53,817 nt of DNA from Candidatus Iainarchaeum sp. (GTDB lineage: Archaea > Iainarchaeota > Iainarchaeia > Iainarchaeales > DTGL01): NCBI GenBank assembly GCA_026396995.1, contig JAPLVS010000079.1:1-53817 (forward strand), read 5' to 3'. Below, one piece after another: positions 8,252-45,900 of the stretch. The notes under the pieces are model-generated. The model saw nothing but the letters and a program-made list of their open reading frames with translations. It was not told the DNA's origin and made no database searches. How positions within the stretch are numbered: position 1 is the stretch's first letter; each line of letters starts with the position of its first letter. The position numbers and the translations under genes were made by a program.

Positions 8252-8330
8252 AAAGCCCCTGGCTGGACTTTGTTTTCAGGGGAAGCGAGCCCTGATTATG
8301 CTTTTTTAATCCTTGAAGCACTTTTTTTGC

Positions 8331-9026
8331 ATGGCCGGAGAGAGGGTTGAATTTGATATTTGGAGTGTGCCTTTGTCTGGAGAATTGTGCGAATTTATCG
8401 GGGCATTTATCGGGGACGGTTTCACCAACGCTTACGGGAAGCATTATTTTTTTGAAATAACCGGCAATAGCGAACTGGACCGAGAGTATCTTTTTTATCT
8501 GGCCAATATGGCCTGCAGGTTGTTCGACGGCATAAAGCCGAATTTTTACAGGGTGAAAAACAAAAGAGCCATCAGGCTGAGATTTCACTCAAAATTTCTT
8601 TTCAGACTGTTTACTGAACGGTTTCAATTCCATAAGGGGGTTAAATCGCATACTGTTTGTGTTCCCGAAGAAATCCTTTGTTCTGGGGAAAAAAACGTTT
8701 TTGCGGTTGTGAGGGGAATTTTTGACACCGATGGCTGCGTGTTTTTTGACAAGAGGAAAATCTACAAAAAGCCGTATCCGAGGATAACGCTTCAGGTTGT
8801 CAGCAGGCCGTTATATTTGAATCTGAAAGAAATACTGGGCGCATACTTCAAAGTCCATTCGGCAGAGCTAAAGCGCGCCTATTGCATTGAAGTATACGGT
8901 CACAAGCAGCTTGAAGCGTGGATGTCGCTTATTGGTTTTTCAAACCAAAGGCACTTGAACCGAATAAAGGATGCGGTAAAGCCCATGGGGGGGATTGAAC
9001 CCCCGACCTCCACCTTACCAAGGTGA
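8331..9026 (+). CDS. free-standing double-motif LAGLIDADG homing-endonuclease-like protein
   Basis: Two LAGLIDADG-type motifs: 'LCEFIGAFIGDGF' and 'VFAVVRGIFDTDGCV'. It is not inside an intron or an intein. The last ~47 nt overlap tRNA-Thr on the opposite strand. Confidence 0.75.
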   Translation: MAGERVEFDIWSVPLSGELCEFIGAFIGDGFTNAYGKHYFFEITGNSELDREYLFYLANMACRLFDGIKPNFYRVKNKRAIRLRFHSKFLFRLFTERFQFHKGVKSHTVCVPEEILCSGEKNVFAVVRGIFDTDGCVFFDKRKIYKKPYPRITLQVVSRPLYLNLKEILGAYFKVHSAELKRAYCIEVYGHKQLEAWMSLIGFSNQRHLNRIKDAVKPMGGIEPPTSTLPR

Positions 9027-9051
9027 CGTTCTACCACTGAACTACATGGGC
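8980..9051 (-). tRNA. tRNA-Thr (anticodon GGU)
   Basis: Minus strand: GCCCATG-TA-GTTC-AGTGGTA-GAAC-G-TCACC-TTGGTAA-GGTGG-AGGTC-GGGGG-TTCAATC-CCCCC-CATGGGC-T. Confidence 0.9.
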
Positions 9052-29400: not shown

Positions 29401-32400
29401 GGGATGTCTTCCCTGTAGACTGTCACTGTCTGCTTCGGGCTTGACGCCTTGAGCGTGAATTCCATTGGCGTGAGCCTTATGCCGCCTTCCTGCGTGCCGC
29501 CCTTGCAGTACGGGTCGCCTGTGCAGAGCTGGACTGAAACATCTGCCTTGCATGCTGTGGCGTCAAGTTCAAAGGTCACTTCTTCCTTGTCTGCTGCAAG
29601 CTCGACTTTTTCGCCTGCGCCAGGCATCGAAATGCAGTCGTCAAGGTTCAGTGCAAGGATGCTTGCGCTGATTTTCACTTTCCCGTTGTTGATTTTCTGC
29701 ATGCCCTTGTCTGTCGCGGTTTCGGCGTCGAAAAGAATATTGAATTTCGAGGTTTCATTGATGTAGCCTGTTTTCGGCGTGAATGTCAGGATTGCATGGA
29801 ATGACCCGAATGTGTCCTTTCCCATTTCAGGCCAGAATGTAATCCATTCGCCTGCCTTCAGTACTTCTGTCACAGAAGCGCCGTCTGCATTGAAAATCGT
29901 GAGCTCGATTATGCCTGCTTTTTTGGAATCACCCGCCCATTCGAGCATTGCCTGCAGGTTTTTCACATCTGTTTTCTGCCCGCTTTTAGTGCACACATTG
30001 TAAATGTCGAATTCTGTCGAAGCGCGGTTGTTTGCGGTGGTCGCATCCCACTCAGGAACGTCAACGCCTTCGATGTTCACGCAAGGCGCGTTATCCGGAA
30101 GCCCACCCATTGAAACTGTTATGGTGACAGGAATCGATACCGCGTATTCCGCGAAAAACTTCTGGCTCCAGATTGACACTTCAAGTTCTCCTTTCAGGGT
30201 TTCATTGCCCTTCATGTAATCTTCGGCATTGATGGAAAGCACTGTTTTCAGCAATGCCATTTCCTGCGAGGAATTCGCCCCGATTTTTGCGTTTTTCCAG
30301 GAGTCAAGATAGGAGGCAACCGCCTCTTCGTTCAGGATGCCCTTGAAGTTTCCTTTCAGTGCCGCGCTTTTTATTGTGAATTCAGTGCCGCTGTTGTTTG
30401 TAAATGTCACGCTCAGTGTTTCCTCTGTTTTGCCTGTTGTCTGGAGCGCCGAGGAAAGCGTTTTCGGCGCAAATCCTATTGTGTCTTTTCCGACCGTGAT
30501 TTCGATTTTCTTTGGAACAAAACCTGTTTTTTCGCCCTCGATTTTGATTTTTGTAAGCGGAACCGAAGCCGGAATCTTGAACGTTGCCTCGCCTGTGCTG
30601 CCTGTGAGTTTTGAGAAAACCTGGTATAATCCATCGGGTGCCCCGCGCGTGATTTTCACAAGCGCGCCGGCTATTGCTGCGCCGCCGTCCTTTGCCTTCG
30701 CCTTGACCTTGAGGCTTGCCTCGGCGAAAGGCGCGATTTCAGCCGGTGTTGCCTCGAGCACCATTTCGTTTTTTGATGTAATCCTGAAATCTGTTTTTTC
30801 CTCGAACACGACCTGCTTGTCGCCTATGACCTGCACCAAAAACTGCGTGTCCGCGATGTTTCTCGGTGAAACAGCGATATTGAAGTTTATGTCCTTGGAG
30901 TACGTGAAATTGCCTAGATTTGCAAGCGAAAAGGTGAAATCCTCGATAGTTTGTGCAGAATAAGCCTTATTGGCATCATAAAAAATGAATGATTTTACCT
31001 TGAGGTCCTGTTTTTCTTCATCTCCATTGACGTTTTTTAGCACGAATCTTAGTTCATTGTAACTTTCCTTGGAGTTGTTCACAAGCGTGAAAATATAGTT
31101 ATAATCGCCTAAAACCAGCATGGAATAGGGCTTTTCCCTGAAAATGTCCTCCTGTTTGTCGTAGAGCCATTCGCCCATTATACAGAATTTCTTGCCGCAG
31201 AACGGCTTGGAGCCTTCAAAGAAAATCTGCGAGAATGCCTCGGCGTAAAGACCGTCTTTTGCAGCAACGCTTGAATTCCCGCCAAGCGCCGCATCATATG
31301 GCGTCCTCATTATGTTGCTGTCTTTCACGCTCCATGCGCGGTAATAGAATGCGAGTTTCGAGTTAGGGTATGTTGCCTCTTTCACCCATACCTCGATTGA
31401 AACATTATAGGTTCCACTCGAAGGCGCCAGCCATTCCGCATTCGCCCATTTTGCAATGTCTGTTGCAGGCTCTTCCGCAGCCTCGCCTTTCGGCGGAGTG
31501 TAAGTGCGCCCCAAAACAACAGAGCTGCTGTTCGGCGCATTCACTTTTGTGATGTATATCTGCTCCTCATCCAGCGACTGTTTTTCGCCTGCCCTGAAAT
31601 GGAATCCCGCGCTGGAAAGCTCGCTGTTGTTAGGGAAAGTGAGCGTGAATTTCAATTCATATGTTTTGCCTGCGCGCAGGCTTTCCGCTTTCACCCCGTT
31701 CTCGAATGCGCCCTTGAATTCGGCCAAGGGCTGCAGTATTTCGCCCTGCCTGCGCATGATTGCGGTTATCGGGAAAGTTTCTTCAGGCCACAGCTGGAAT
31801 GATTCTGTCTGGTAATCGAGATAGCCGGTTTTTGAGAAAACAAGGTATATTTTTTTGTCCGCTTTTATTGAATAAGTGAGTTCGCCGCTTGTGATAGGCA
31901 CTTTTCCCCCGGTCACTGAAACATTGTCCTGGTCGAATGCCTCGAAATATGTTTCAGGCAAAATTGCGCCGCTTGAATCCATTGTCTTGATGGCAAGGCT
32001 GCTGTTCCCGATAACAATCTGCACATCGAATTCGTTCAATGCCAGCGGGTCGATTTTTTTCGCGCCGGCCGCGCTTCCGCCCTGCGCCGGATACTTCAAT
32101 GCATAGGCGAATATTTCCTTTTCTATTGGGCCGAGATAGAATTCCGCGTTGCCGTCCGCATCAGTCAGCACATAATCTGTTTCCCCTGACAAAGGCACTA
32201 TCGCCCCTGTGGCCTTGTAGCGGAACATCACTTTTGCGTCCCTTACCGGAATGCCGTCCTCGTCCTTAACCCTCACGACTGCCCTGCCGAGCAAATCAGC
32301 AGTTATCTTTTGCAGGCTGAGCGTGATTTCAACATTCAGGTCGTTGACATCTGCAGAAGCAGGGAAATAGCCTTCGTTTACATTGCCGTCCTTTTTTGCT

Positions 32401-33602
32401 GTGACAGCATAGGCGCCGGCGTCATACAGCCTGAATACCGCCAGCCCGGCATTCTCCCCAGTATTCTTTTCGTCTATGGTTTTTCCGGCCTGGTCTGAAA
32501 GGATTACTGTTGCGTTCGCAATTGCCTGCCCGCTGCCTTTGTCCTGCACTTTCACTGTTATCGTGCCCTTGACTGTTTTCGAAACAACCAGGGTTTTTTC
32601 AAGTGTGACGCCTTTTTCAATGACAATGTTTTTGAATTCTGCGATGTCCACAAGGACATATTCCCCGTTGCTGTCTATGAAGGCCGCATTATATGTGCCA
32701 GTGGGCAGTTCAGGGAAGCTTATTATGCTGTAGCCCTGGCTTGATGCAGGAATTTTGTCGCCGTCCTTTTCAAGGACAATTGTGAAGTCTTTGCCTGTCA
32801 GGGCTTTGCCGTCAGTGCCGGTTATTTTGAACCTTGCGGCGCCTTTCGGCTTCTCTATTTTCTTCAGCACTATTACCTGGGTGCCGTCGCCGCTGAAGCT
32901 TCCTGTGCTTTCAGCTTCGTAGCCAGGCACATCCGCCGTGACTTTTATATCACTGCAGTTCTCGGGCAGTTCCACCTCTATCAGCCCGCTCCTGTTATCG
33001 TCTGATACAGAAAATTTGCGGCCGTCCTTGCACTCGATTGTTGCGGTGATGAGCAGGCCTTTTATCAGCCCGCCCTGCGCGTCCTCGAACCTGATGAGCC
33101 TTTTTTCAGGCGGCAGTTTCAGCAATTTGAGCGTGATGATTTCCTTGATGGCTGTTGCCCCGACCGAATAGGTTTTCTGGAATGCCTGGTAATCAGGGTC
33201 TTTCACTGAAACCTTTATGCTTGAATTCTGCGGCACCAAAAATGAAATTTTCCCCTCAGGGGAGGTGTTTATGTCTTTTGGGCTTTTGCCGGCATCGATT
33301 GAAACCGTAAGGTTTGCAATCTGCCTGTCGAGGTCGTCCCTGAAAATGAACACAGCGTTAACGTCTTTCTGCAAAGAAGTGCAGTCCTGAGGGCATGATG
33401 CCGCGGATTCGCCTGCCTGGCAGCTGCCGTCCCCGCAGGACACTGCGGGCTGTGTGAAAAAGAAGAATGCGGCAATCGCAACAATTGCAAGCGCGATTAT
33501 TATTATCGGGGGAAAGCCTATTTTTTCCTTGAGGTTCGCATAGGATTCGCCTATCGTGAAACTGAGGTCCTCAAGGTTTTCTTTCACTGGCATTTTTTCC
33601 AC
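26493..33602 (-). CDS. giant membrane-anchored surface protein, paralog 1 (2369 aa)
   Basis: Uninterrupted 7.1-kb ORF (GTG 33602 or ATG 33593, GGAG upstream). N-terminal TM helix 'PPIIIIALAIVAIAAFFFF'. It has repeated carboxypeptidase-regulatory-like beta-sandwich units, e.g. 'GTITVKVQDKGSGQAIANATVILSDQAGKTIDEKNTGENAGLAVFRLYDAGAYAVTAKKDG'. It shares the motifs YCDATQFSIAL (28350-28382) and FYYLPFDG (27346-27372) with the other two giants. Confidence 0.9.
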   Translation of the reverse strand: MEKMPVKENLEDLSFTIGESYANLKEKIGFPPIIIIALAIVAIAAFFFFTQPAVSCGDGSCQAGESAASCPQDCTSLQKDVNAVFIFRDDLDRQIANLTVSIDAGKSPKDINTSPEGKISFLVPQNSSIKVSVKDPDYQAFQKTYSVGATAIKEIITLKLLKLPPEKRLIRFEDAQGGLIKGLLITATIECKDGRKFSVSDDNRSGLIEVELPENCSDIKVTADVPGYEAESTGSFSGDGTQVIVLKKIEKPKGAARFKITGTDGKALTGKDFTIVLEKDGDKIPASSQGYSIISFPELPTGTYNAAFIDSNGEYVLVDIAEFKNIVIEKGVTLEKTLVVSKTVKGTITVKVQDKGSGQAIANATVILSDQAGKTIDEKNTGENAGLAVFRLYDAGAYAVTAKKDGNVNEGYFPASADVNDLNVEITLSLQKITADLLGRAVVRVKDEDGIPVRDAKVMFRYKATGAIVPLSGETDYVLTDADGNAEFYLGPIEKEIFAYALKYPAQGGSAAGAKKIDPLALNEFDVQIVIGNSSLAIKTMDSSGAILPETYFEAFDQDNVSVTGGKVPITSGELTYSIKADKKIYLVFSKTGYLDYQTESFQLWPEETFPITAIMRRQGEILQPLAEFKGAFENGVKAESLRAGKTYELKFTLTFPNNSELSSAGFHFRAGEKQSLDEEQIYITKVNAPNSSSVVLGRTYTPPKGEAAEEPATDIAKWANAEWLAPSSGTYNVSIEVWVKEATYPNSKLAFYYRAWSVKDSNIMRTPYDAALGGNSSVAAKDGLYAEAFSQIFFEGSKPFCGKKFCIMGEWLYDKQEDIFREKPYSMLVLGDYNYIFTLVNNSKESYNELRFVLKNVNGDEEKQDLKVKSFIFYDANKAYSAQTIEDFTFSLANLGNFTYSKDINFNIAVSPRNIADTQFLVQVIGDKQVVFEEKTDFRITSKNEMVLEATPAEIAPFAEASLKVKAKAKDGGAAIAGALVKITRGAPDGLYQVFSKLTGSTGEATFKIPASVPLTKIKIEGEKTGFVPKKIEITVGKDTIGFAPKTLSSALQTTGKTEETLSVTFTNNSGTEFTIKSAALKGNFKGILNEEAVASYLDSWKNAKIGANSSQEMALLKTVLSINAEDYMKGNETLKGELEVSIWSQKFFAEYAVSIPVTITVSMGGLPDNAPCVNIEGVDVPEWDATTANNRASTEFDIYNVCTKSGQKTDVKNLQAMLEWAGDSKKAGIIELTIFNADGASVTEVLKAGEWITFWPEMGKDTFGSFHAILTFTPKTGYINETSKFNILFDAETATDKGMQKINNGKVKISASILALNLDDCISMPGAGEKVELAADKEEVTFELDATACKADVSVQLCTGDPYCKGGTQEGGIRLTPMEFTLKASSPKQTVTVYREDIPGLYGIPVKARLSNTSFRNVRTIDLLVEPETGEWFALNRYEALLSADTNWKDTVELKNSMLMEAVTVHTTECKSCKDTKKLPKECVLNKVMQTTVGQKSKIDDPALLVAGIAPAISAYSAVAASDISLTLLGLTCGPPCWGVAAAAAVIALFYWLSTQGAQCDIVSVSPIFDDYVVNLAGGDLKTLELFDVPFKAIQNTSNTSLVISDKEETIAIDLENDSKSASAIESYGVLKVSATEHIHGDVTHKKPEFSTTEPNFGPFNIPDSTGTYSQAFHLKFETKESVDFELPPLEDFYSCVDGSKIGITGKDARPRVKFNWGWAEGKGIAASDCDATNKNGVYCDATQFSIALSKRIKKIDEFLSANGYSLQCPPNPNTFLLSDYLVKTNKEKSTHAVSSNTVGLSAISQTLSSEADKATIIVSAENKTTQSQSVKIKITLARGDSYNESCEETKTAGANASEQMSCSFENLAESNIEPYFAVATIEEAAPGDKDDTQLAVGFLNTAATTDCWLPLSTKQIEGRASLLYFIDKTIPGVGELIKNNNINWPSGWQGSTEAEKIAYLRSLFEFKATLVKDGYGADFQSDFAAYYSGTTFFDVPSWFYSGSNNQLSDYFRDAERMKFKQKYANDAILPGPGVYEVYITIDFNSGNWSLYADGKPKGKITVEFYKVNEPVVNSAFYYLPFDGLVGLNTENGRQDYGLNYVNENEDIPVCSAPYDVRTTTSSASKALATMSTKKQQDLKQLNSSAATRGNVLAVEVQGSEPLLVFSPSYATPVILKATGEKGKALNAQFTFVEGGQPAIAGNNLSFWTGLGKCADFSGVPIREVFDSYADSRAGDKSYKLSWDAVAYSGTLYLYSIFYTPLEKAYSVTADSGCTFMSPDSGEIKTVEAKGITGMANNSKGNSDPIASVERILDMVGEGSVCVTNSGSKSSFWWNPKALKDFKGAKLGVTDFELSLLPGKTCIGPEE

Positions 33603-33680: not shown

Positions 33681-36600
33681 TTATTTCGATTTCGGCTGGA
33701 TGCACTCGCCTGTCGCATTGTCGATGTATTTCTGGAGCGATTTTTCTATTATCACTTTCGGGTTCCAGAAAAAGACAGTCTTTGCGGAATTGCCGGTGCC
33801 TGCAACGCAGATGTCCTCGGCCTTGACGAGTTCGAACACTTTTTCGACTGAATCGATGCTGCCGTCATATACTCCATTGAGCATCACAGTCGTGCCGCCT
33901 GCCGTGGTCGGCGCAATGAACGAGGCGCTGTCCTGGCTGTCTGTAAGCTCGATTGTGGATTCCGAGCCCTGCGGCGTGAACAGCACTGTCTTCAGGAAAA
34001 CGCTGCCCTGCCTTGTGACCTCGCACCATTCAAGGCCGTAATCGCTTTTCCTCTGTGTCGGCGAGCAGGACTGCTCGCTTGAAATGCCGCCGTGCATGTC
34101 CTTCCTGTTCATGTAAGTTTCAACTATTTCATTATCGGTGAAATCCTTGCAGCCCCTGACTATTCCAGTCCAAGTCGTGAGATACGAGCCTGTTATCTGG
34201 GGTTCGCCGTCAACTGTCATCGAATAATACGCCCAGGCCCTGTCGGATTTCCCGCCTGAAACCTTGAGCAGGAGCGGGGTCGCATTGCTCGGGCTCAATA
34301 TTATCGTCGAATCCGAGGCGGTGTGCTCGACATCAAGGACAACGCCGCGCTTGTCGTTGTTAAGGGTGCGGAAATTGTTGTTCTCTGCTGTGTACACCCA
34401 TCCGCCCGGGAGCGGCGAACTCGGCGCAATCGTGCTTGTCCTCAGCAATTGCTTTGAATCCTCGTTTATCTGTATTGTGGCAAGCGATTCCTGCCTGTAA
34501 TTTACGCCGTAACCCTGCCTGCCGTTGCCGCTGTCCGCTCCGACCAGGCCGTCGAATGGCATGTAATAGAACGGCGAGTCCGGGTCCGGATGGCTTAACA
34601 GGTTGAGTTTCACTGTAATGACCGCATTCGGCTCTGTTTCCTTGAACAAAGACCATGAAGAATCCTTGTATTCTATTTCAATCCTGACCTGATATTTTCC
34701 GCTCCTCAGATAGCCTGATTCAGGCCTCAGGAACGAAGAATCGAATTTCAGCAATTCAGGGTTCTTGAAATATTTCCACAGCCCTGTGTCGCCCTTATAA
34801 TAGCTCGGGGTGCCGAAGAAATCCTTTGACTGCGCGAACTCGTCGAAGTCGTTCCTGAAATCGTTTGTGTAACCGTCCATTATCAGGTTTGCCTTGAAGT
34901 TCGTGAGCTCGAGGGCCTTGCTGAGATTGGAATTGTTCGGGTTTGCAATCGAGTATTCGGCAAGCCTTGCGGTCGAATACGGTTCGCATTTTTCAGGCAC
35001 TCCTGAACCCACTACAACAGTTACATCGGCTGTGTTGTTGCCTGCATCTGTGTCCTTGCAACTGCCTGACTTGCAGGTTGAAACCTGCGGGCTTATCTGC
35101 ATGCTTGCAGTGTAAACGCCGTCAGTGAGGTTGCTGAAAGTGCAGTCTATTTCCTCCCTGCTTGTCAACTGCACTGCCTTTTCGCCGTTGGCGGCTTCAG
35201 GGCACGCTATCGGCGTTGCAGTGCCTTTTTTCGTGAGCGATATGACCGCCTTGACCGTCATTTCTGTCTGGTTGTTGCTTTCAATCGTGCCGATAACTTT
35301 TGCATTCTTTCCGTCCTTTACAACCCTTATCCTTGTAATGCCTACATCAAGGTCGTCGGTGCTCAGGTCCTGCGACTTGTCGCTTACCGCGCCCTCTATT
35401 GCCGGGCAGGCGAAAGTCTGGCCTCTCAGGAGCGTGTCAACCGCCTGGATTTTCTTTAACAGTTCTATCGAGAACTGGGTTGCATCGCAGTAAGTGCCGT
35501 CGCCTGCCTCATCGCAGGTATTGTCCTTGACATTGCTCCAGTCCCACCTGAACAAAACCTTGGGCAGGGCATTGGGCCCTGTCGTGCCTGTCATGTCGCC
35601 TATCATGCACGAAGTTTCCTGCACGACAGCCGGCTCGATTTCTTTCGCGCAATATGCGTTGAACTGCAGATGGAATTTCTGCGTGGCTCCATCCCCCCCG
35701 GTTACTGTGAGGAATTCGCCTGTCTTCAATGCCTCCGCGTCCTCTTTCTTTTTGACCTCGAACTGGGTGTTGTAATCGTATTGGTTGGTGTCGACTTTCA
35801 AAGTCCTGAAAACCGGCTTGTAGGGTTCGGCCTGCGTTAAGCCGTTGTTCTTGAAAACTATTTCTGTTTCCTCCCTTCCAAGCGGGTAATCCTTGTCGGC
35901 CTTTTTGGTTGTATCGCCTGTTTGCACAATGATCTGGCTTTCAGCCTGCTCTTCAAGGCCCATCGGAATGACAAGGTTCACTGACAAAATGTTCATGTCG
36001 GTTGCAGTGGTCACATAAGGCAGCGTCCCTTCCTGCTGCACGAAATTATAATTGTAGAGAGTGCCTGCAATCGCGCCGACTACCGCTCCCATCCACGGGT
36101 TATCGATGCCGATAAGCGAATTAATCGAACTGTTCAGGGTTCCAAGCAATGACCCGCCCAAATCCAGGAGGCTGCCGCCGGTTGAAGCCATTGCGACAGG
36201 CATGCCATTTTCCGGAACGCCCTGAGCAGAAGCGCTTCCAAGGCACTCGTGCTTTACATATGCCTCTTCCCCAATATCGTCAACATACATGTTTCCGGGC
36301 GCAGGGCAGCAGTAAATTGTTTCGCCGTTGTATGTGACTGTCTGCGGCAGAACCTCCACATTTTGCATGTGGCATGTTCCGTCAGATAAAGTGCATGTCG
36401 AGCAAGTTCCGTCGCTCGGGCATGCGGAGATAACCTCGTCACATTCTGCGCCCCCCTTGCAGAGCACTGCAGAGCATTTGTCCCGGTCTGTCAATGTTAC
36501 TGTGGTCGGTGTCCCGCTGGTGTTTGCAGTGCCTGATTCTGTGTATGGCGTAAAAATGGCCCTCCCCTCACTATCCTTAGGGAAGTGCCTGTCGCTGCCC

Positions 36601-39600
36601 ATGAGATAGCACGACATTTGCACGTTGCCTCCGCCAGACGTGTCCATTTGGCAGCAGGTTGTGTTAATTGAGCCTATTATATATGCCTGCGGGTCGACTC
36701 CCTGGCATTGCAGGCAACGGCCCCAGCATCCGTATCCTTTGCCTGTGGGGCAATAATTGCCATGGCCGCCGTCCGTGCAAACCTTGTTCTTTTCAGTCAG
36801 GCTTCCGGTTGACGTTGAAGTGCCTCCTGTTGTTGTGCCTCCGCCTGTTCCAGTGCCGGTTCCCGGGGTGTCCTTGCATTCGGCTCCGTTTGCCCCTTCC
36901 TCGCATGTCTGGTTGGGTTCGCATTTCTTGTAAGATGTTGTTGTGGTAAGGCAGCCTGCTTCCGCAGAGCAGCCTGTGTTTTCGAGGCAGCCGCCTTGGT
37001 AAGTGTCTATTACTATTTCTCCGGGTGTGCCTGAGCATCTCGGCTTTGCGCCTGCCGCAGGTTCGCCGCTCTTGCAGTTGAAGTAATAATTGCCTGAGCC
37101 TTGTTTCTCCATATCCCTGGGAGTGCATGCGGCCTTGCAGCAGGGCAATCCCTTGTTGTCTGCTGCCTGCAGCAATACCTGGTTTTCGGGATCGCAGTCT
37201 TCGTCAATGTAAGTGCAGTAAGTCCAGCCTTCGCTCTTGCATGCGGCCTGGTATTCGTCGACTTTTGCAGCGTTGTCCACGCACTTGTGCAAGCAGCAAT
37301 CTGTTCCGCCTATAACCGTGGGTGATTTTTGGAAGCATGCTTCTCCTGCCTCGCAGTGGTCATAGTTTGGGTCGCCGTCAAGCGCTGTGTTCTTGCAAAT
37401 GCTGTCAGCTTCTGTCGCCTGGCCTGTGCCGCCTCCGGCCTTGGGCTTTGCAGTGCCGTCCTCTTCATTGAACATTGATTCGCATTCCGCAGTGCAGCAA
37501 GGCAGGTCGTCATCGCCTATCTTCTGTATTTTTGCAGTGCATTCTGATGTCACGCCGTCGCAGAAGTGGTATGACGAGTCAAATGCGCTGCATGTCTTTT
37601 CGTAATAGTCAGAGTCTTCCGGGTTTGTGCAGATATGCTGGCAGCATTCAATTCCCTCGACTTCTTCTGTTTCGCCGCCAAGGCATTCCTCATTTTCCTG
37701 GCAGAAATCATATTTGGCTCCTTTGGTCATGCATGTCGTGTCTTCGGCTTCAGTTTCCTTTTCAGGCTCTGAGTATGTTGCATCCTCTGACTTTATGCAG
37801 TCCGCAGAACAGCACTTTATTCCCTTTTCCTCGTAGATTAATTCTTTTTTGTCAGGGCAGGCCCAGCCGTTCTTTTCGTTGCAGAACTTTGCGCTTTTTT
37901 CAGCGCAGGCCATCATCTGCGGTGTGTTTTCAGGCGTTTCGCACTTGCCTGTGCAGCATTTCACTCCCTCAAACCATTCGAAGTCTTCGGAGCATTCCTC
38001 GCCTTCATTGCAGTATGCGCCGCTGTTGTCCTTGCATATTTTCATGAATGCCTCTGTTTCGAATTCAGCCTGGCATTTGCCCTGGCAGCAATAAATTCCG
38101 CTTACCGGCTTTTGCTCGCCGACGCATTTCCCTGTGCCGCAGTAAGTGTAGCCTTTCTTTGTGCACAGGTCTCCCCTTACGCTTGCGCCTTTCTCGCCGT
38201 CAACGCATTCCGAAGCGCAGCATATGACATTTTTGACCTGTTTTATGTTGTCGTTCTTGCACATCATTTTGCCTGAACAGTATTCGAGGCCTGCGTTCGA
38301 GCATGTTGTTTCAGGCTTGTCTGTGCCCCAGAAGGTCTTGCCTTCAGCCATCGCATTGATGCCGCCGTAAATGAATCCGCCCAGCGCCCAGGGCCAGGAC
38401 CCAAGGAAGGCATCCCACAGGTTCTTTTCGTTGAATTTTACTTCTGCATTTATTGTCTTGGAATGGCACACGTTGATTATTTTGCCTGTGTCGAAGCCGT
38501 CGTACAGGTTGTCAGAGCAGTCCTGTATGTCGTATTCGTATTTGCTGAGCCTTATGCAGCCGTCTGTGTCGATTATTACGCTCACAAGTTTTGCGAAACT
38601 GTATTCTTTCAGGCCTGCGCCTTTCATGAAAACGTATATCGGGTATGCGCCCGGGTAATTTTCTTCGGAAAGCACTGTTATCTCTTTTGTTTCGCCCTGC
38701 TTCATCGAGAATTCTTTCTGTGGTATAGTGAGGTCGGTGTCAAGCTTTAATCCCACAGTACCGCCGCAGTTTTCTGTTGCCTCTATTGTGAACGAGCCTT
38801 CCTCGCCTTCCATGATTTTTACGAGGTCCTTGCTGAATTTCAGGCATCCAGCCATGTTCACTATTTTGATGGAAACGCCCATTGAATCGCTCAAAACCTG
38901 CGTGCCGCCTGAAGTGGCGTGCTCTGCAGTGACTGTTATTGTCGCTTCGGCTGTGCCGACAACCCCTGCGTCAGGCAGGAATGAAAGCATTCCGGTTATG
39001 TCGCTTTCCTTGTCGAGGGAACCGCGCAATAATTTCGGGTAATTGCCCCTCAATTCCACCGCAATGTCCTGTATTTTCACCCAGACATCGCCCAATTTGT
39101 TGCTTTTCCATTCTATTTTTGCAGAAATGTTTTTGAGTTCGACAGGCTGCCCTTTTACAGTGCACGAATTCGACACTTTTATGTCTGTGGCTGCCTCCTG
39201 CGATTGGATTGTTGCCTGCCATGAAGCCTTGTCCAAAGTGAAGCAGTTCGGGTCGTCCACTTCACCGCCCAATGCTATTGTTACGGTGGTGTCATTTGAG
39301 AACACCCAGGAATGGCCCATTGAGGAAACAGTGAATGTTATTTTTCCGTTGAGTGACTGGCCTGTCTCCGTAAGTTTGCCGAGGTCGCTCAGTTCGACCT
39401 TCGAGGATATCTCGAGTGTTTCCTTTGAGGCTATTTTTTTGCCAACGTATTCCGAGTACAGCCATTCGTTGGCTTTTTCCTCGTCGACAAGGCCGTCGAA
39501 TTCGCCTGTGAATTGTATGTCTGAAATAGTGAGCTCCATCTGTGTGAGGTTTGTGAGCGTGATTGTTTTAGTGTCTGGCAGTTGCTCAATGACATCGAGG

Positions 39601-42600
39601 TTGAACGCTGTTTTTTCAGGTTCTATCCCGAGCACCGAGGTGTCGACAGTTATTTCTTTTTTGAGGGCTTGGTAGTCAGGCTTTTCTGCAACAATGAACA
39701 GTTTTTCGCCTGGCACAAGGATTGGAATGGTTATGGCTGCAATGCCCAGCCCTGTTGTTGTGGTCTGTGAGAGCGTGTCCCCGAACTTGTTCTGGAGCTT
39801 GACTGTCGCGCCCGCAACCTCCAGGCCGTCGCGCAGCCTCTGCACTTTCACCTTTAATTCGTTTTCTATGCCGCTCGGCAGCGTTGGCGGCGAATCCTGG
39901 TATTCGCCATCCTTTTCGAACAATATCTTGAATTGCTCGGCTGCAAGAATGTCTATTGTGATGGATTTTTCGAAGATGTTTTCGTGCCTGTTAGGGTCGT
40001 GCAGCCTGAACATTATGGCTGAGGAAATGCTTGCCTGCGGGGTGAAGAGCAGCGTTCCTTTCACTTCCCTGCTCGGCGGCAGGTTGCCTATCGATACTTC
40101 CGGCGTTTCACTGCCCTGCGCGTTCCCGTCGACTGAAAGTTCGCCTGTGAAATTGTATGTGCCGATGGTTATCGATTCCTCGGGATTCCAGGCTTTCGCT
40201 GTCACGCCCTGGAAAGTATCGGTTTCGCTTTTGCTGTTGTTCAGGACGCTGAATGAAAGCCTGTAGGGCTTGCCGACCTTGGCCGAATATGTTTCGTCGA
40301 CAGACTGTGCCAGGTCTTCCTCTATGTCGAGTATTTTCACCGAATAGCACCATTTGTCTGAGCAAAGCGTTTCGGTGCCGACCTGGAATGTTTTCTTGTA
40401 TGCTTCGGCGTAAAGGCCTGCGGTGCTTTCGGATGTTCCCAGCGTGATGTCTGCCGGGTCCCTCAGGACAGTGGTGCCGTCTTCGGCCCATGCGCGCCAG
40501 AAAATCGGCAGTTCTGTATCGGCCTTTGCTGTGTCTTTCACTTTTATTATGAGTTCTACGTAGATTTTGCCTTTGGTGTAATTCGACCATTCGAAGTTCA
40601 TCCATTTCGAGCCGTCCGCGCTCAGGAACTGCGAGTCCGCGTTTATTCCCTGGCTTTTGTCGAAAGAAGTGCCTTTCAGGATGTCAGGGTTCCCGGGAAC
40701 CATTTCTTCCTTTATGTAAATGTGGTCGAGTTCCATTTTGCTTTCATAGCCTGTCCTTACATGCAGGCCAACCCTGTCGTATTCTGAATTGTCAGGCATT
40801 GAAAGCCTGAATTTTGCAACGTATTCCTCGCCTGCCCCGGCGATTGAAACGATTTTGCCGTTCTTGTAAAGGCCGAGGAATTCGCCTTCTATTCCCCCGC
40901 TTATGCGCATTATTTCAAGCACGAAATTGAGGTCTTTTGTGGCTGCCGGTTCGACTGTCACAGGCTGCGATACAAGCGTTGCATAGCCGTCTTTTTGCAC
41001 CACAAAAAATACGGCTTCGCCTGCAATGACTTCAAAGGAAATCGTGCCGTCCTCGTTTTCCACGATTTTCGGGCCCTCTATTTTTTTGTCGTTCTGCGCT
41101 TTTTTGACAGTGACAAAGGAATACTGCAGCGGCCTGCCATCCTCATCCACCACCCTCACATTGATTGTGCCGTTCTGGACAGTCATTGTGACAGTCAGGT
41201 CTTCCTGGGCGCCTTCCCTGACGCTGTATTCGGTTGTTTCGCTCCAGCCCTTGCTGTAGCCCCTGAAAGCGAACGCCTTGTAGGTGCCGTTCCCTATGCC
41301 TGTGAATTTGGCATAGCCGTTTATGTCTGTCACCCTTTTTGTGCCGACATAGTAGCCGTCATTGTCGAACAGCATTACAACTGCGCCCTGGATGCTATTG
41401 CCTGCCTCGTCCTGCACTTTCACATTCAGGGAACCGCCGCACTGGCTTGCAAGGCCTGTGTATTTTGTGAGGCTTATCTGCTTGACGTCATCGCCTTTTG
41501 TGAGGTCGGACAGTTTTTTCAGGCAATAGCCTTCCTTGTCTATCACAAGGTTGTATTTTGTGTCATCCCTCAGGTTGAAGGAATATTCGCCTGTGGTTGC
41601 CGTAAGGGCGCTTTCGATTTCGGCCTGGTCTTTTTTGAGTGTGAGCCTTGCGTCCTTTACTGCCGCCTTCGAGGTTGCGTCTATCACTTTCACTTTTATC
41701 TGGCCGACAATCCTGTCCTTCAAGTATAATGAGGCTGTTTTCTTGTCCCCTGCGTTCACGCTGATTGCGGCTGACTCCTCGCCTGTAAGGGTTGATGTTG
41801 CGGTGCTTTTGACCTTGTATTTTCCAGGCTCAAGTTCCTTGAACTGCACCTGCCCGCTTGAAGTGCTGTCGTTGTCTATTGGAATTGCGTCTTGTGCCAA
41901 GTCTTCGACCCTGTAAAGGCTCACTGTTATTTCTTCAGCCACGCGCTTGGCCCTTTCCTTTTCATAGAAGAGGTTGACTGTGAAGTCGCCTGTCACAGGC
42001 TCAGGGGGAATTGTCACATCGGCCTGCAGTTCTATTATGCCGTCAGACCCGACTGTGGCGTTCTTGCGCTTGTAGCCCGACATTACGACGTCGGCGGTCA
42101 GAATGCAGTTTTTTGGGATTACCGCGGTGTAAAATCCGTTTTCTATTGTCACAGAGCCTGGCGATTCAAGGTCCGGGTCTGTGCATTTGAGGACCGCATT
42201 TGCTGCCTTGCCGCTCAAAAGCCCCTTTGATTCGGAATCAACAAGCCTTATTGCCACTTCCTTGGTGGTGATTATTTCCTCAAGGGTGAAAGAAAGCGAT
42301 TTCTTTTCGGTTTTGATTTCTATATCCGAATAATATCCTTCCGAAGGCGTCTTGAACTTGTAGCCTTCCTTTTCAACGCTTACCTTTGTGATTTTGTCGC
42401 CCATGAAAACATTGAAGTCGGCGATTGTGCCGTCTTCACTTGTCTTGTAATCGTATGTCTTGCCCCCATACGTGATTAGGACTGCCGCGCCCTCAAGCGG
42501 GTTTTTGTCTGTGTCCTTTACAGTGAGCGATATGGTGCCAGGCTTCGGGGCGATGACCGGAAGGAAGAATATGACTGTAAGGTATACGAGGAGCGCGACT

Positions 42601-42656
42601 ATTATGAAAAGCAAAAGCGCAAAGCTCGGTATGACCTTGTCTATTGCATCGGTCAA
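33681..42656 (-). CDS. giant membrane-anchored surface protein, paralog 2 (2991 aa) with cysteine-rich insert
   Basis: Uninterrupted 9.0-kb ORF with a TTG start (no in-frame ATG upstream; a stop lies 18 codons upstream). N-terminal TM helix 'FALLLFIIVALLVYLTVIFFL'. Repeated units include 'GSLNVKVQDEAGNSIQGAVVMLFDNDGYYVGTKRVTDINGYAKFTGIGNGTYKAFAF'. YCDATQFSIEL is at 35460-35492 and FYYMPFDG at 34548-34574. A ~750-aa Cys-rich block spans 36105-38345. Confidence 0.9.
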   Translation of the reverse strand: MTDAIDKVIPSFALLLFIIVALLVYLTVIFFLPVIAPKPGTISLTVKDTDKNPLEGAAVLITYGGKTYDYKTSEDGTIADFNVFMGDKITKVSVEKEGYKFKTPSEGYYSDIEIKTEKKSLSFTLEEIITTKEVAIRLVDSESKGLLSGKAANAVLKCTDPDLESPGSVTIENGFYTAVIPKNCILTADVVMSGYKRKNATVGSDGIIELQADVTIPPEPVTGDFTVNLFYEKERAKRVAEEITVSLYRVEDLAQDAIPIDNDSTSSGQVQFKELEPGKYKVKSTATSTLTGEESAAISVNAGDKKTASLYLKDRIVGQIKVKVIDATSKAAVKDARLTLKKDQAEIESALTATTGEYSFNLRDDTKYNLVIDKEGYCLKKLSDLTKGDDVKQISLTKYTGLASQCGGSLNVKVQDEAGNSIQGAVVMLFDNDGYYVGTKRVTDINGYAKFTGIGNGTYKAFAFRGYSKGWSETTEYSVREGAQEDLTVTMTVQNGTINVRVVDEDGRPLQYSFVTVKKAQNDKKIEGPKIVENEDGTISFEVIAGEAVFFVVQKDGYATLVSQPVTVEPAATKDLNFVLEIMRISGGIEGEFLGLYKNGKIVSIAGAGEEYVAKFRLSMPDNSEYDRVGLHVRTGYESKMELDHIYIKEEMVPGNPDILKGTSFDKSQGINADSQFLSADGSKWMNFEWSNYTKGKIYVELIIKVKDTAKADTELPIFWRAWAEDGTTVLRDPADITLGTSESTAGLYAEAYKKTFQVGTETLCSDKWCYSVKILDIEEDLAQSVDETYSAKVGKPYRLSFSVLNNSKSETDTFQGVTAKAWNPEESITIGTYNFTGELSVDGNAQGSETPEVSIGNLPPSREVKGTLLFTPQASISSAIMFRLHDPNRHENIFEKSITIDILAAEQFKILFEKDGEYQDSPPTLPSGIENELKVKVQRLRDGLEVAGATVKLQNKFGDTLSQTTTTGLGIAAITIPILVPGEKLFIVAEKPDYQALKKEITVDTSVLGIEPEKTAFNLDVIEQLPDTKTITLTNLTQMELTISDIQFTGEFDGLVDEEKANEWLYSEYVGKKIASKETLEISSKVELSDLGKLTETGQSLNGKITFTVSSMGHSWVFSNDTTVTIALGGEVDDPNCFTLDKASWQATIQSQEAATDIKVSNSCTVKGQPVELKNISAKIEWKSNKLGDVWVKIQDIAVELRGNYPKLLRGSLDKESDITGMLSFLPDAGVVGTAEATITVTAEHATSGGTQVLSDSMGVSIKIVNMAGCLKFSKDLVKIMEGEEGSFTIEATENCGGTVGLKLDTDLTIPQKEFSMKQGETKEITVLSEENYPGAYPIYVFMKGAGLKEYSFAKLVSVIIDTDGCIRLSKYEYDIQDCSDNLYDGFDTGKIINVCHSKTINAEVKFNEKNLWDAFLGSWPWALGGFIYGGINAMAEGKTFWGTDKPETTCSNAGLEYCSGKMMCKNDNIKQVKNVICCASECVDGEKGASVRGDLCTKKGYTYCGTGKCVGEQKPVSGIYCCQGKCQAEFETEAFMKICKDNSGAYCNEGEECSEDFEWFEGVKCCTGKCETPENTPQMMACAEKSAKFCNEKNGWACPDKKELIYEEKGIKCCSADCIKSEDATYSEPEKETEAEDTTCMTKGAKYDFCQENEECLGGETEEVEGIECCQHICTNPEDSDYYEKTCSAFDSSYHFCDGVTSECTAKIQKIGDDDLPCCTAECESMFNEEDGTAKPKAGGGTGQATEADSICKNTALDGDPNYDHCEAGEACFQKSPTVIGGTDCCLHKCVDNAAKVDEYQAACKSEGWTYCTYIDEDCDPENQVLLQAADNKGLPCCKAACTPRDMEKQGSGNYYFNCKSGEPAAGAKPRCSGTPGEIVIDTYQGGCLENTGCSAEAGCLTTTTSYKKCEPNQTCEEGANGAECKDTPGTGTGTGGGTTTGGTSTSTGSLTEKNKVCTDGGHGNYCPTGKGYGCWGRCLQCQGVDPQAYIIGSINTTCCQMDTSGGGNVQMSCYLMGSDRHFPKDSEGRAIFTPYTESGTANTSGTPTTVTLTDRDKCSAVLCKGGAECDEVISACPSDGTCSTCTLSDGTCHMQNVEVLPQTVTYNGETIYCCPAPGNMYVDDIGEEAYVKHECLGSASAQGVPENGMPVAMASTGGSLLDLGGSLLGTLNSSINSLIGIDNPWMGAVVGAIAGTLYNYNFVQQEGTLPYVTTATDMNILSVNLVIPMGLEEQAESQIIVQTGDTTKKADKDYPLGREETEIVFKNNGLTQAEPYKPVFRTLKVDTNQYDYNTQFEVKKKEDAEALKTGEFLTVTGGDGATQKFHLQFNAYCAKEIEPAVVQETSCMIGDMTGTTGPNALPKVLFRWDWSNVKDNTCDEAGDGTYCDATQFSIELLKKIQAVDTLLRGQTFACPAIEGAVSDKSQDLSTDDLDVGITRIRVVKDGKNAKVIGTIESNNQTEMTVKAVISLTKKGTATPIACPEAANGEKAVQLTSREEIDCTFSNLTDGVYTASMQISPQVSTCKSGSCKDTDAGNNTADVTVVVGSGVPEKCEPYSTARLAEYSIANPNNSNLSKALELTNFKANLIMDGYTNDFRNDFDEFAQSKDFFGTPSYYKGDTGLWKYFKNPELLKFDSSFLRPESGYLRSGKYQVRIEIEYKDSSWSLFKETEPNAVITVKLNLLSHPDPDSPFYYMPFDGLVGADSGNGRQGYGVNYRQESLATIQINEDSKQLLRTSTIAPSSPLPGGWVYTAENNNFRTLNNDKRGVVLDVEHTASDSTIILSPSNATPLLLKVSGGKSDRAWAYYSMTVDGEPQITGSYLTTWTGIVRGCKDFTDNEIVETYMNRKDMHGGISSEQSCSPTQRKSDYGLEWCEVTRQGSVFLKTVLFTPQGSESTIELTDSQDSASFIAPTTAGGTTVMLNGVYDGSIDSVEKVFELVKAEDICVAGTGNSAKTVFFWNPKVIIEKSLQKYIDNATGECIQPKSK

Positions 42657-42780
42657 CTTGTTGACAGGCAGTTTTGTGCTGATTTTGTCTATTATTTCAT
42701 AATACCTGTCTTAAAGATGATAATACAGGTCTTTCAGAGAGCTTCCAAGTCCCATACATTCACCAAACCTTTATTCACTA

Positions 42781-42954: not shown

Positions 42955-45900
42955 TTACTCTTTTTCTTCGGCTGCAGGCGAAATGAATGTGTTGGTAAGA
43001 TCCGGAATGAAAACATTCCAGCCCAGGTCCATCACCGCAAGCGTTCCGCTCGAATCCTTTTTGCCCTTGTTGACGCACACTTCGCTGCTTTCTATCCTGT
43101 CAATATAATCCTGTATTGCGGCAACCCTTCCTTTCGGGTCAGTGAGCGAAACAGCGCCGCCGCTTGACGTTGTTGTCTTCGAGGTTGACGATGCCTCGCC
43201 TTCAAATGGCTTTGCGGTTATTATTGTGGGCTGTTTTGCGCACAATAATTCCAGCCTGAAATTGCTTGAATTGGCAGGCAGGAACACAACCGAGTTCCAG
43301 GGCGAAACATTGCTGAACATTACCTTGCCTGCGCGCACCTTTTCAGCCCAGCCCTCACAGAAAGAATCGCCTTCGAATTCCTGGAAGGAATCTGACCTGC
43401 CTTCTATCCCGAGCTGCCACCATACCAGCAGTTCCTGCATTTTCCCGATGTCAGAATAATCGCTCGGGGACATCCTATAGTATATTGTGTTGTTCTTGCC
43501 TTCATCCCATTCCGCGGAGACCGCAGCCGGATACGAGGGCGTGTAATTGAATGTGCCTTTCTTGAGGTTTATGGAAAGGACTGCGCCTGACCTTGTCTTG
43601 TCATATTTGTCGGAGTAAGACGGAGTAAGGGTTACTGTTCCAGGCATCCTGTTGACCGCGGCGAACCATTTGCCCTGCGATTCGTTCGATAAGAATATCT
43701 TGTCTGTAATGTCGGCATTGAAGCCCACGCCGTAATCGGCTGAAGTGCTTTCCTGCCCGACCTCGCCGTCGAATGGCAGGTAGAAGAACGGGTTGAAATC
43801 GTAATACGCCTTTTCTGTTTCGCTGAGCTGCTTCAGCGAGGCATTCAGCGCCATTTTTGCCACTATCTGTTCGAGCACAATCGAATAGTTGTCAGAGGAA
43901 AAGTCGATTGAAACAACCGGTTCCGCCCTGTAATAGTATTCGCCTGTGTCAGGGAGGGCAGGCATCATTTCGTTAACGCCCTCAAAGCCTTTCTCCTCGC
44001 TGTACGAATCGTACAATTCGAACTTTATCTGGTCTGCGCTGAAAGCCGTGTCCTTGTAGAATGCAGTGAAGTCGTTAACGAAAGTTTCAGAATAATTGTC
44101 CTTGATGAGCCTTGCTGCCGAAATCTCCGTGCCGGCCAGTTTTTCAAGGTCCTCGTCTATGGCATTCGCCGCATTCTCCCTTATGAAGTTTTCCCTGCTT
44201 TCGCTCAATCCTTTTTTGTTCCTTATGCCGATGCTGAATTCGACAGAATCATTAATTTTCTTGAGGAATTCAACCCATGCCGCCTGTGGCGCAGGAATCG
44301 TGGCCTCCCCTATCTGCACCTGGAGGGTTGGGTTTGCTTCCCCTGTTCCCTGGGCTGCGCGCCATGCGCTGATAAGGTCTGTGTGCATCTTGTTGTATTC
44401 CTCGAAAGACACGATATAGGAATCGCTGCCGAGATACGAATCGCCTGAGGATTCCTCGAGTTCGAAGATGCTTCCCCTGAGCTGGTTCCAGATTTCGTTC
44501 GCTCCGGCGCCCGAGCTTTCCATGGCGCTGTCAATGCTTTTCGGCAGTATCGCAATGACCCCTGCCGAATCTATGTCTTTCCCGTAGCAGCTGCCGAGCG
44601 CAACAGAGAACATTGAGGGCGTATTTGAAATGGACCCGCTCCGATCATATTCGTTTGTGGTGGAAAGGTCGCTTATCCATTTTGTGAGTTCGCTGATAAG
44701 CGATTTCTTGGTGCATTTCACCGCGCTTGCCATCAGTTCCGGTTCGAGCACGTATGTGCCGCCCTCGTTTTCAGTGAGGAACAGCAGGTAATCCTTGCCT
44801 GAAACATTGTCGTGCACTTTCAATTGTTTCTTGTACAGCCTGTAGAGTTTTCCCGGAGTGCTGTTTATTTCATTCACAAGGCCGTCATCCTGCCCTATTG
44901 TTGCCGCAATCTCCCTTAACTGCGGGTCATCCTGCAATTGTATTGAGAGCTTGTCTGCCATTTCCCTTATTTCGTTGAATTTCCTGCTCAGTGCGAGCGA
45001 GAACTGCGTGGCATCGCAGAAAATGTAATCCGTGTTTGCGGTGGTTGTGCCTTCAAGCAGCGGGTCGCATGCGTCCGCCGCAAGTTCCCCTGCGCGCCAG
45101 TTGAATTTCAGCCTGTCAAAGCCGAGTTCCTTGAATGTGGCGGCGCCTGTCTCCTGGCTTGTGCAAGCGGTATTTGAAGCCCAGTCAGGCACAGGCCTTT
45201 TTTCCTGCAGTTCGTTTTCGCAGCCGTCAGCGTATGCCTGCATTCCGCGGTTCAATACAGTGAGCTGGACAGGCATTGTGACCTCTGTTGCCTCGGTATT
45301 ATAGAACGCCCTTTTCACTGTAAGCGTAATGGATGTGTCGATTACCGCGCATTTTGTGGCCATTTCGCCCCTGTCCACTGTCATTACGACATGGTGGCCG
45401 CCGTTCGTGATATTGAATGAAAGTTTCACCCCGCTTTCGCCGTCCTCGAACAAAGCCGGCTTTACTGCCTGTATTTTGTCAGTTGAGCCGCAGTACTGGT
45501 TTTCTGCAGCCTCGTCGTTGGAAAGCGCGTAAGGCATGACCATTTCCCTTTTAGGGACTTTTTCTTTCCATGCAAACCTGTTTTCAGTGAAATGCTGGTC
45601 CTTGATTTCCTTCCATTCGTCGCCCCAGCTCGGGAGCACGAAATAATTCTTGTTGAAAATGCATTCGTCCGGCATTTTGTCTGCGTCACCGCTGTTCATG
45701 AGCATGCCAGCAACGCCGACCCATGCGAACGGGTCCTCGAATGTGACTTCCCTCGGAATGTATTTCTGCTGGCCGTTAGGGTCAGTCATCGGAATGCTTA
45801 TTATTCCCGGCGAAATAACAGAATTCACGAGTTTCGAAAACACCACCCTTATCTGGCCGAGTCTCTGTTCAAGCGGCCCCTCGAGCGGAATCGACATTTG

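Follow-up and report, generated by a model that had tools for sequence, protein, structure and literature searches.

What is a cysteine-rich block of about 720 residues doing in the middle of one giant archaeal surface protein when the two related proteins encoded beside it have none? The question is raised by contig JAPLVS010000079.1 of Candidatus Iainarchaeum sp. (assembly GCA_026396995.1), all 53,817 nucleotides of which were analysed and are called the window below. Three giant open reading frames (ORFs) lie head to tail on it: the one under study, of 2991 aa, in the middle, flanked by ORFs of 2369 aa (26493-33602; paralog 1) and 2553 aa (42955-50616). The 2991-aa protein contains 102 Cys, compared with 32 and 28 in its two paralogs, and 74 of the 102 fall in a 747-aa stretch (aa 1438-2184) marked earlier in a reading of the DNA that used no database searches (the sequence-only reading). 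The explanation that we favour, and consider probable, is that this insert, specific to one lineage, lies outside the cell as a string of small domains stabilised by disulfides and serves as a structural extension of the protein.

The motif CC-x3-C occurs exactly eight times in the 2991-aa protein, at aa 1479, 1523, 1567, 1615, 1671, 1720, 1787 and 1839, and every occurrence closes a module of six Cys. The resulting array of eight tandem modules spans aa 1452-1844 (nt 38303-37125), which agrees closely with the nt 38306-37135 first proposed for it. The spacing pattern proposed at the same time also holds, but its ranges, C-x(5-10)-C-x(3-5)-C-x(9-16), were slightly off; the modules read C-x(7,9,13)-C-x(4-7)-C-x(11-17)-CC-x3-C. 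When the residues of the insert were shuffled 20,000 times, none of the shuffles gave more than two full modules, compared with the eight observed. A MAFFT alignment of 39 modules from five proteins contains six invariant Cys columns and yields the consensus [I/A/T/L]-C1 ... [Y/F/H]-C2 ... C3 ... G-[V/I/L]-x-C4-C5-x3-C6. Over its 395 aa the eight-module block is strongly acidic (net charge -39), and Cys makes up 12% of it; His accounts for 1.4% of the modules and is not conserved. The gaps between Cys within modules are 7-13, 4-7, 11-17, 0 and 3, and none equals 1 or 2, so that CxC and CxxC do not occur. A regular expression and a module hidden Markov model (HMM), both applied to the window translated in all six frames, matched the 2991-aa ORF alone, in eight domains of 26-39 bits; the block is thus specific to this paralog, as the sequence-only reading had it. 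That reading had also described a less regular Cys stretch and a Thr/Gly linker behind the modules. Both are there, the stretch resolving into three irregular domains with 8, 8 and 10 Cys, and at the position of the linker the orthologs have variable G/T/P-rich linkers. By eye the three tail domains look like derived copies of the module; none of the three was recognised by the module HMM in its run over the window.

The same array is found in four full-length orthologs of the 2991-aa protein (P0002-P0005, 74-53% identity). It recurs with the same module spacing in a fifth ortholog, taken from a genome contig of GTDB (L004), where a stretch of N within the G/T-rich linker is all that interrupts the gene call. 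All come from metagenome-assembled genomes of Candidatus Diapherotrites or Candidatus Iainarchaeum, or from uncultured archaea. Eight canonical modules are present in four of the five orthologs, and seven plus a divergent stretch in P0003. The four full-length orthologs have 45 of the 48 module Cys in common, the other three being missing in module 7 of one ortholog alone, and almost all Cys of the window protein recur in the alignment with them. In the five complete sequences (the window protein and P0002-P0005) the insert holds an even number of Cys (74, 76, 72, 78 and 86), and outside it each has 28. All five orthologs carry, between modules 4 and 5, a mini-module of four Cys, C-x5-C-x7-14-C-x3-C, which the window protein does not have; in register it resembles a module minus C1 and minus one Cys of the CC doublet. 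The joint absence of these two residues is expected if they are disulfide partners.

The residues between the Cys behave differently. Non-Cys identity among the orthologs is 37-65% in the modules, 58-83% in the flanks and 25-45% in the tail, which is the most variable part, and the non-Cys positions of the insert evolve two to three times faster than the flanks. Ratios of nonsynonymous to synonymous substitution rates (dN/dS, Nei-Gojobori method, against P0002) are 0.19 for the N-terminal part, 0.30 for the modules, 0.51 for the tail and 0.14 for the C-terminal part. The insert is therefore coding, constrained mostly on its Cys scaffold, and fast-evolving. Modules at corresponding positions of the orthologs share 20-64% of their non-Cys residues (64% for module 1, 20% for module 6), versus 6-31% for modules of one and the same protein, and it follows that the array is old and stable, each module having an identity of its own. 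Two duplication scenarios were considered and rejected. Modules 1-4 align column-for-column with modules 5-8, as a duplicated block of four would, yet the non-Cys identity between modules i and i+4 is 6-20%, with no excess over other pairs. Recent tandem duplication or concerted evolution was discarded on the grounds that no tandem repeat was found in the array at the DNA level and that positional orthology is clear. Pseudo-homolog rows in shifted register, tried for a deeper multi-module alignment, were also abandoned, as MAFFT restored the true register.

Does the module belong to a family already described? At E<=10, Pfam-A returned no Cys-rich family for the whole insert, the eight-module block or the tail, EGF-like, TNFR_c6, Furin-like and LDLR-A included. 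A Pfam scan of the full 2991-aa protein found Ig-like families alone, all outside the insert (CarboxypepD_reg, SdrD_B and SpaA-type domains in aa 260-990). NCBIfam gave no match for the insert, and PDB sequences gave none with the insert or with the module profile. A HMMER profile of the 39 modules, searched against 1.84 billion representative proteins, retrieved as its only true match the protein itself (E 3e-48, eight stretches); P0011 (E 4e-7) and P0012 (E 5e-5) were rejected as unrelated short repeats that match part of the profile. No comparable array was found elsewhere among the 1.84 billion proteins, with the limit that a 37-position profile would miss proteins with one or two copies. 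A word-indexed protein search with the 747-aa insert alone gave no match, though the same database contains orthologs with 45-70% identity across the module block; we treat this null as a false negative and consider such nulls on Cys-rich or low-complexity queries untrustworthy. A scan of metagenome contigs with modules 1-4 confirmed no locus, and in the literature on giant or cysteine-rich surface proteins of DPANN archaea and Diapherotrites we found no report of a Cys-module array.

One module, modelled by AlphaFold2 (AF2) on the 39-row alignment, gave a confident structure with a mean predicted local distance difference test score (pLDDT) of 91.1, made up of a helix (residues 2-6) and a β-hairpin (22-25/28-31); the short helix lies at C1, C3 and C6 are bridge residues, and the CC doublet is on the second strand of the hairpin. 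A Foldseek search with this 36-residue model retrieved an alpha-defensin as the best PDB match (E 5.3) and noise from BFVD, which for so small a query is weak evidence. Two known Cys patterns resemble that of the module. The trefoil (P) domain has six Cys in the same order, C-C-C-CC-C, but its CC is preceded by about 4 residues and followed by about 10 (C-x9-10-C-x9-C-x4-CC-x10-C), versus 11-17 and 3 in the module; hhalign against a few trefoil sequences gave a probability of 0.2%, and there was no Pfam match. The WAP core of elafin and SLPI follows the pattern C-xn-C-xn-C-x5-C-x5-CC-x3-5-C-x3-4-C, with eight Cys and four disulfides, and shares with the module the local C-x5-C-...-CC-x3-C pattern and a central β-hairpin. 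Since the module has six Cys and not eight, the WAP disulfide map cannot be kept, and membership in the WAP family is not supported. Because the Pfam, NCBIfam, PDB and Foldseek searches were all null, and in view of the trefoil and WAP profile comparisons, the module is filed under no known family. The module family is new, with no sequence or structural relative and no place in the known families, as the sequence-only reading had suspected; as a kind, tandem Cys-stapled mini-domains in surface proteins are well known.

We then consider where in the protein the array sits. BLASTP against paralog 1 aligns aa 59-1374 and 2325-2969 and leaves an unaligned middle of about 950 aa, versus about 230 aa there. 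In distant homologs other material occupies the insertion site: P0006 has a region rich in Ser, Thr and Gly, P0007 one rich in Lys and Glu. Downstream of the site lies a conserved C-terminal region that defines a DPANN domain family, with homologs P0013-P0026 in Diapherotrites and Micrarchaeota and no corresponding Pfam family. Its AF2 model (pLDDT 82.6) is mostly β, and a PDB structure search with this model returned CARDB/Ig-like sub-domains alone, with no enzyme and no class II fusogen among them. Motifs of the family include YCDATQFS, DGYxxDFxxDF, PFYYMPFDGxVG, GRQGYGVNY and FFWNPK. In three of the homologs (P0015, P0020 and P0022) a separate signal peptide opens the downstream half; next to it comes segment B, the Gly-rich segment that directly follows the insert in the window protein. 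At locus L005 (2462-10952) the counterpart of the middle gene is in fact split at the insertion site, into a gene for the 1840-aa N-terminal part and one for the 983-aa P0015, with 17 nt between them. P0015 also has a short 4-Cys stretch ahead of segment B. Because of the split gene and the separate signal peptide, we regard the insertion point as the boundary of two separately exportable units and not as a loop within a fold. The idea of a domain array grafted into a loop therefore holds as to the insertion but not as to the loop: at this site two conserved halves meet in a variable junction.

The segments on either side of the insert (A and B in Table 1) had been described as hydrophobic and as adjacent in paralog 1. 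They are adjacent there (aa 1505-1557, about nt 28932-29090, where two Gly-rich segments stand side by side with CGPPC between them), but in the 2991-aa protein they are Gly-rich and mildly hydrophobic, with Kyte-Doolittle means below 1.2, and in P0006 their counterparts also stay below 1.2. If segment B crossed the membrane, fused and split proteins would differ in the side on which the C-terminal region lies. By Kyte-Doolittle, the only clear membrane helix of the 2991-aa protein is at aa 14-32. On the simplest reading of the sequence, everything past this N-terminal anchor, the Cys array included, would be outside the cell. Four features enter into this: the single strong anchor at the N-terminus, the Ig-like flanks, the Thr/Gly/Pro linkers in the insert, which are typical of exported archaeal proteins, and the signal peptides on the split-off halves.

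Taken together, these results suggest the following arrangement. Eight modules of about 35-50 aa and three irregular Cys domains would stand between an Ig-like stalk of about 1400 aa and the C-terminal region of about 800 aa. Within a module, C1 would sit on the short helix, C2 and C3 on two loops, the CC doublet on strand 2 of the hairpin and C6 four residues further on, and the six invariant Cys would form three intramodule disulfides, C1 probably pairing with one Cys of the doublet. The array may then act as an acidic extension, braced by covalent bonds and resistant to proteases and shear, that lengthens this paralog and separates its halves, with each bead, at a rough estimate, a few nanometres long; the fast-evolving surfaces that it displays may give the 2991-aa paralog its own reach or partner specificity. 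Three disulfides per module are favoured because six Cys are invariant, their totals are even, they are lost pairwise, CxxC, CxC and conserved His are absent, and the site is probably extracellular. Even numbers and paired gain or loss are seen throughout: six Cys per module, even totals for the insert, and a mini-module that differs from a module by two.

Several points weigh against this reading. In paralog 1 the counterparts of segments A and B are more hydrophobic (Kyte-Doolittle 1.82 and 1.66), in the range of membrane helices, and a membrane hairpin is possible. The array is known from six sequences of one genus, the window protein and its five orthologs, so that the conservation statistics are shallow and the reach of the finding is limited in the same way. 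The eight modules contain no N-glycosylation sequons where about two are expected, an uninformative count. That disulfides form, how they connect and that metal is absent are what we infer, and so are the extracellular location and the spacer or display role. Finally, sequence cannot separate a spacer from a binding array, and no ligand or partner was identified.

The last point leads to the possibility that the modules serve primarily for specific recognition and bind a host-cell surface, a glycan, a mineral or a cation, as EGF-like, LDLR-A and TNFR repeats do. Such an array would overlap with the structural extension that we favour and does not exclude it. It would be in keeping with fast non-Cys surface positions on a fixed scaffold, with the acidity of the modules (-39 over 395 aa), with the restriction of the block to one paralog, and with the drop in conservation along the array, from 64% in module 1 to 20% in module 6 with the tail fastest of all, which fits a variable distal tip. 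We nevertheless judge recognition unlikely as the primary role, as across the modules no residue other than the Cys and the scaffold positions is kept that could mark a shared binding site, every dN/dS value is below 1, and there is no known partner. A metal-binding array, in which the six Cys of a module would not pair in disulfides but hold Zn, Cu or Fe, in a structural site or as a metallothionein-like sponge, would account for the high Cys density (12% in the modules), and the four-Cys mini-module of the orthologs can be read as a Cys4 site; the confidence of AF2 does not discriminate here, as AF2 folds zinc domains well too. Of the two possibilities raised in the sequence-only reading, disulfide-bonded modules are favoured over a metal-binding array. 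Zinc-ribbon, zinc-knuckle and Fe-S modules have paired CxxC, CxxH or CxC knuckles and four ligands, whereas the modules of the insert have no such knuckles and their His residues are scarce and not conserved; we know of no standard Zn or Fe-S site that fits six ligands with an adjacent CC pair. Metallothionein-like proteins contain about 30% Cys in CxC, CC and CxxC clusters and few secondary-structure elements, compared with 12% Cys and a predicted helix and hairpin in the modules. With no zinc or metallothionein family found in Pfam at E<=10, and with a location that appears to be extracellular, metal binding is very unlikely.

Could the modules instead be WAP-like (four-disulfide-core) domains that have diverged, with a role in protease inhibition or antimicrobial defence at the cell surface? 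The C2-C3-C4C5-C6 part of the module can be laid onto C3-C4-C5C6-C7 of WAP over 21 columns (hhalign probability 27%, pairwise E 6.6e-4, against three WAP sequences), and the two share a '..KCCxGxC' look. The signal is mostly driven by Cys, however, and is not significant; C1 and C8 of WAP are left without counterparts (6 Cys versus 8), the hairpin is about 7 residues longer in the module, and neither Pfam at E<=10 nor the PDB sequence and Foldseek searches turned up a WAP family or chain. We consider this reading highly improbable. Hardly credible, finally, is a cytoplasmic loop, with segments A and B as membrane helices and the Cys block inside the cell, its Cys reduced or metal-bound. The hydrophobicity of the adjacent segments of paralog 1 (1.82 and 1.66) and a GxxxG-rich, hairpin-like stretch in P0021 speak for it, but the segments stay below 1.2 in the 2991-aa protein and in P0006, and the signal peptide directly upstream of segment B in the split-gene relatives conflicts with it, as the C-terminal region would be cytoplasmic there and extracellular here. 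The Thr/Gly/Pro linkers in the insert, as in exported archaeal proteins, and the flanking domains, which have conserved Cys pairs like the insert, also argue against a place inside the cell.

An extracellular array of disulfide-stabilised domains remains the reading that we prefer, and as such it invites comparison with known systems. Small disulfide-rich domains in tandem are characteristic of the extracellular proteins of eukaryotes, whereas prokaryotes rarely have them. Like EGF-like, TNFR Cys-rich, furin-like and LDLR class A repeats, the insert is built from 35-50-residue units with six invariant Cys each, and as in those eukaryotic proteins the units combine a conserved scaffold with a variable surface and follow one another head to tail in what would be the extracellular part of a large protein anchored in the membrane. 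It differs from them in Cys order, with the CC doublet as Cys 4-5 and a C-x3-C end, in a predicted fold without PDB neighbour, and in its DPANN archaeal host. The array would thus be an independent example of tandem disulfide-rich architecture in a small-genome DPANN archaeon, adding a new small-domain family and possibly a new stable scaffold. It also shows which member of the conserved trio of giant surface proteins has become specialised in Iainarchaeum. The host protein itself resembles the giant surface proteins of DPANN and candidate phyla radiation (CPR) symbionts and bacterial giant adhesins in its N-terminal anchor, its long Ig-like arrays (CarboxypepD_reg, SpaA, CARDB-like) and the several tandem paralogs that fill a large share of a small genome; it is unlike them in that the Cys-module array and the C-terminal region fall outside any Pfam family. 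Attention is thereby drawn to an unannotated giant surface family of DPANN archaea, with a variable junction flanked by Gly-rich hydrophobic segments, which may be central to cell contact with surroundings or hosts. By analogy, the GxxxG-type Gly-rich hydrophobic segments at the junction resemble glycine zippers or viral fusion peptides. A more far-reaching proposal would have it that the module is a truly new disulfide-rich fold, that these are the first tandem Cys-stapled repeats native to DPANN, and that the rigid array positions or gates Gly-zipper, fusion-peptide-like segments for host-membrane engagement or fusion; we regard this as quite unlikely. The features on which the above discussion draws are collected in Table 1.

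Table 1. Features of the 2991-aa ORF and its Cys-rich insert, in the order in which they are translated (positions are those of the window).
Feature	Residues (aa)	Position (nt)	Strand	Basis or remark
Host gene, giant surface protein, middle of three tandem paralogs	1-2991	33681..42656	(-)	ORF, 2991 codons
N-terminal membrane anchor	12-36	42549..42623	(-)	Kyte-Doolittle 19-residue mean 3.21; sole strongly hydrophobic segment
Segment A, Gly/Trp-rich, mildly hydrophobic (AFLGSWPWALGGFIYGGINAMA), directly upstream of insert		38346..38411	(-)	Kyte-Doolittle mean <1.2
Module 1 (CSNAGLEYCSGKMMCKNDNIKQVKNVICCASEC)	1452-1484	38205..38303	(-)	HMM domain score 38.9 bits
Module 2	1498-1528	38073..38165	(-)	HMM 31.4 bits
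Module 3, modelled with AlphaFold2	1541-1572	37941..38036	(-)	HMM 37.3 bits; pLDDT 91.1
Module 4	1584-1620	37797..37907	(-)	HMM 28.5 bits
Module 5	1642-1676	37629..37733	(-)	HMM 37.5 bits; preceding 4-Cys mini-module of orthologs missing
Module 6	1689-1725	37482..37592	(-)	HMM 26.0 bits
Module 7	1754-1792	37281..37397	(-)	HMM 34.7 bits
Module 8	1806-1844	37125..37241	(-)	HMM 31.5 bits
Irregular Cys domain 1, 8 Cys	1861-1927	36876..37076	(-)	Cys spacing
Thr/Gly linker (TPGTGTGTGGGTTTGGTSTSTGS)	1930-1952	36801..36869	(-)	Sequence
Irregular Cys domain 2, 8 Cys including CC doublet	1960-2016	36609..36779	(-)	Cys spacing
Irregular Cys domain 3, 10 Cys including CC doublet	2061-2138	36243..36476	(-)	Cys spacing
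Segment B, Gly-rich, amphipathic/hydrophobic (GGSLLDLGGSLLGTL...PWMGAVVGAIAGTLYNYNF), directly downstream of insert		36042..36179	(-)	AF2 pLDDT <50, one predicted helix
Conserved C-terminal region	2231-2991	33684..35966	(-)	Homologs P0013-P0026 in Diapherotrites and Micrarchaeota; DPANN domain family

The Cys outside the insert deserve a separate remark. All 28 are kept in P0002-P0005, and many are closely paired (158/184, 378/406, 765/770, 1138/1165 and 1271/1297), a pattern that suggests disulfides in the Ig-like domains too. Their number is odd on either side of the insert, 13 before it and 15 after. Paralog 1 has, directly behind its membrane anchor, a small four-Cys motif of its own (CGDGSCQAGESAASCPQDC, aa 55-75, about 33380-33440 of the window).

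At the N-terminus of the 2991-aa protein, the motif ..SLKDLYYxLEDRYYEVIDKI..KIP.. (about 42656-42755 of the window) is short, cytoplasmic and conserved; it stands ahead of the membrane anchor, is also found in the N-termini of P0002-P0009, and may be a sorting or anchoring signal. An in-frame TAA at 42711-42713 (-), upstream of the ORF start at 42656, breaks this conserved N-terminus between MGLGSSLKDLYYHL and DRYYEIIDKISTKLPVNK, and the codon is Glu (GAA) in all orthologs. Either the TAA is a sequencing error or the gene is shortened at its N-terminus and restarts at a TTG; the 2991 codons that are left show no further interruption.

The cluster of three giant paralogs (about 2550, 2950 and 2350 aa) takes up about 24 kb of a small genome and is conserved both within Iainarchaeum and in a DPANN genome further removed (26493-50616 in the window, 2247-25956 in L001 and 1-18157 in L005). 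The remaining genes of the window encode a family B DNA polymerase, HisRS, a methionine-aminopeptidase-like protein, ribose-5-phosphate isomerase and five tRNAs; because of the polymerase, HisRS, the other housekeeping genes and the tRNAs, the window is taken to be cellular chromosome. One further ORF, at 8313-9026 (+), weakly matches a LAGLIDADG-like domain (E 6e-4, which does not reach the Pfam cut-off) and overlaps the gene for tRNA-Thr (8980-9051, -).

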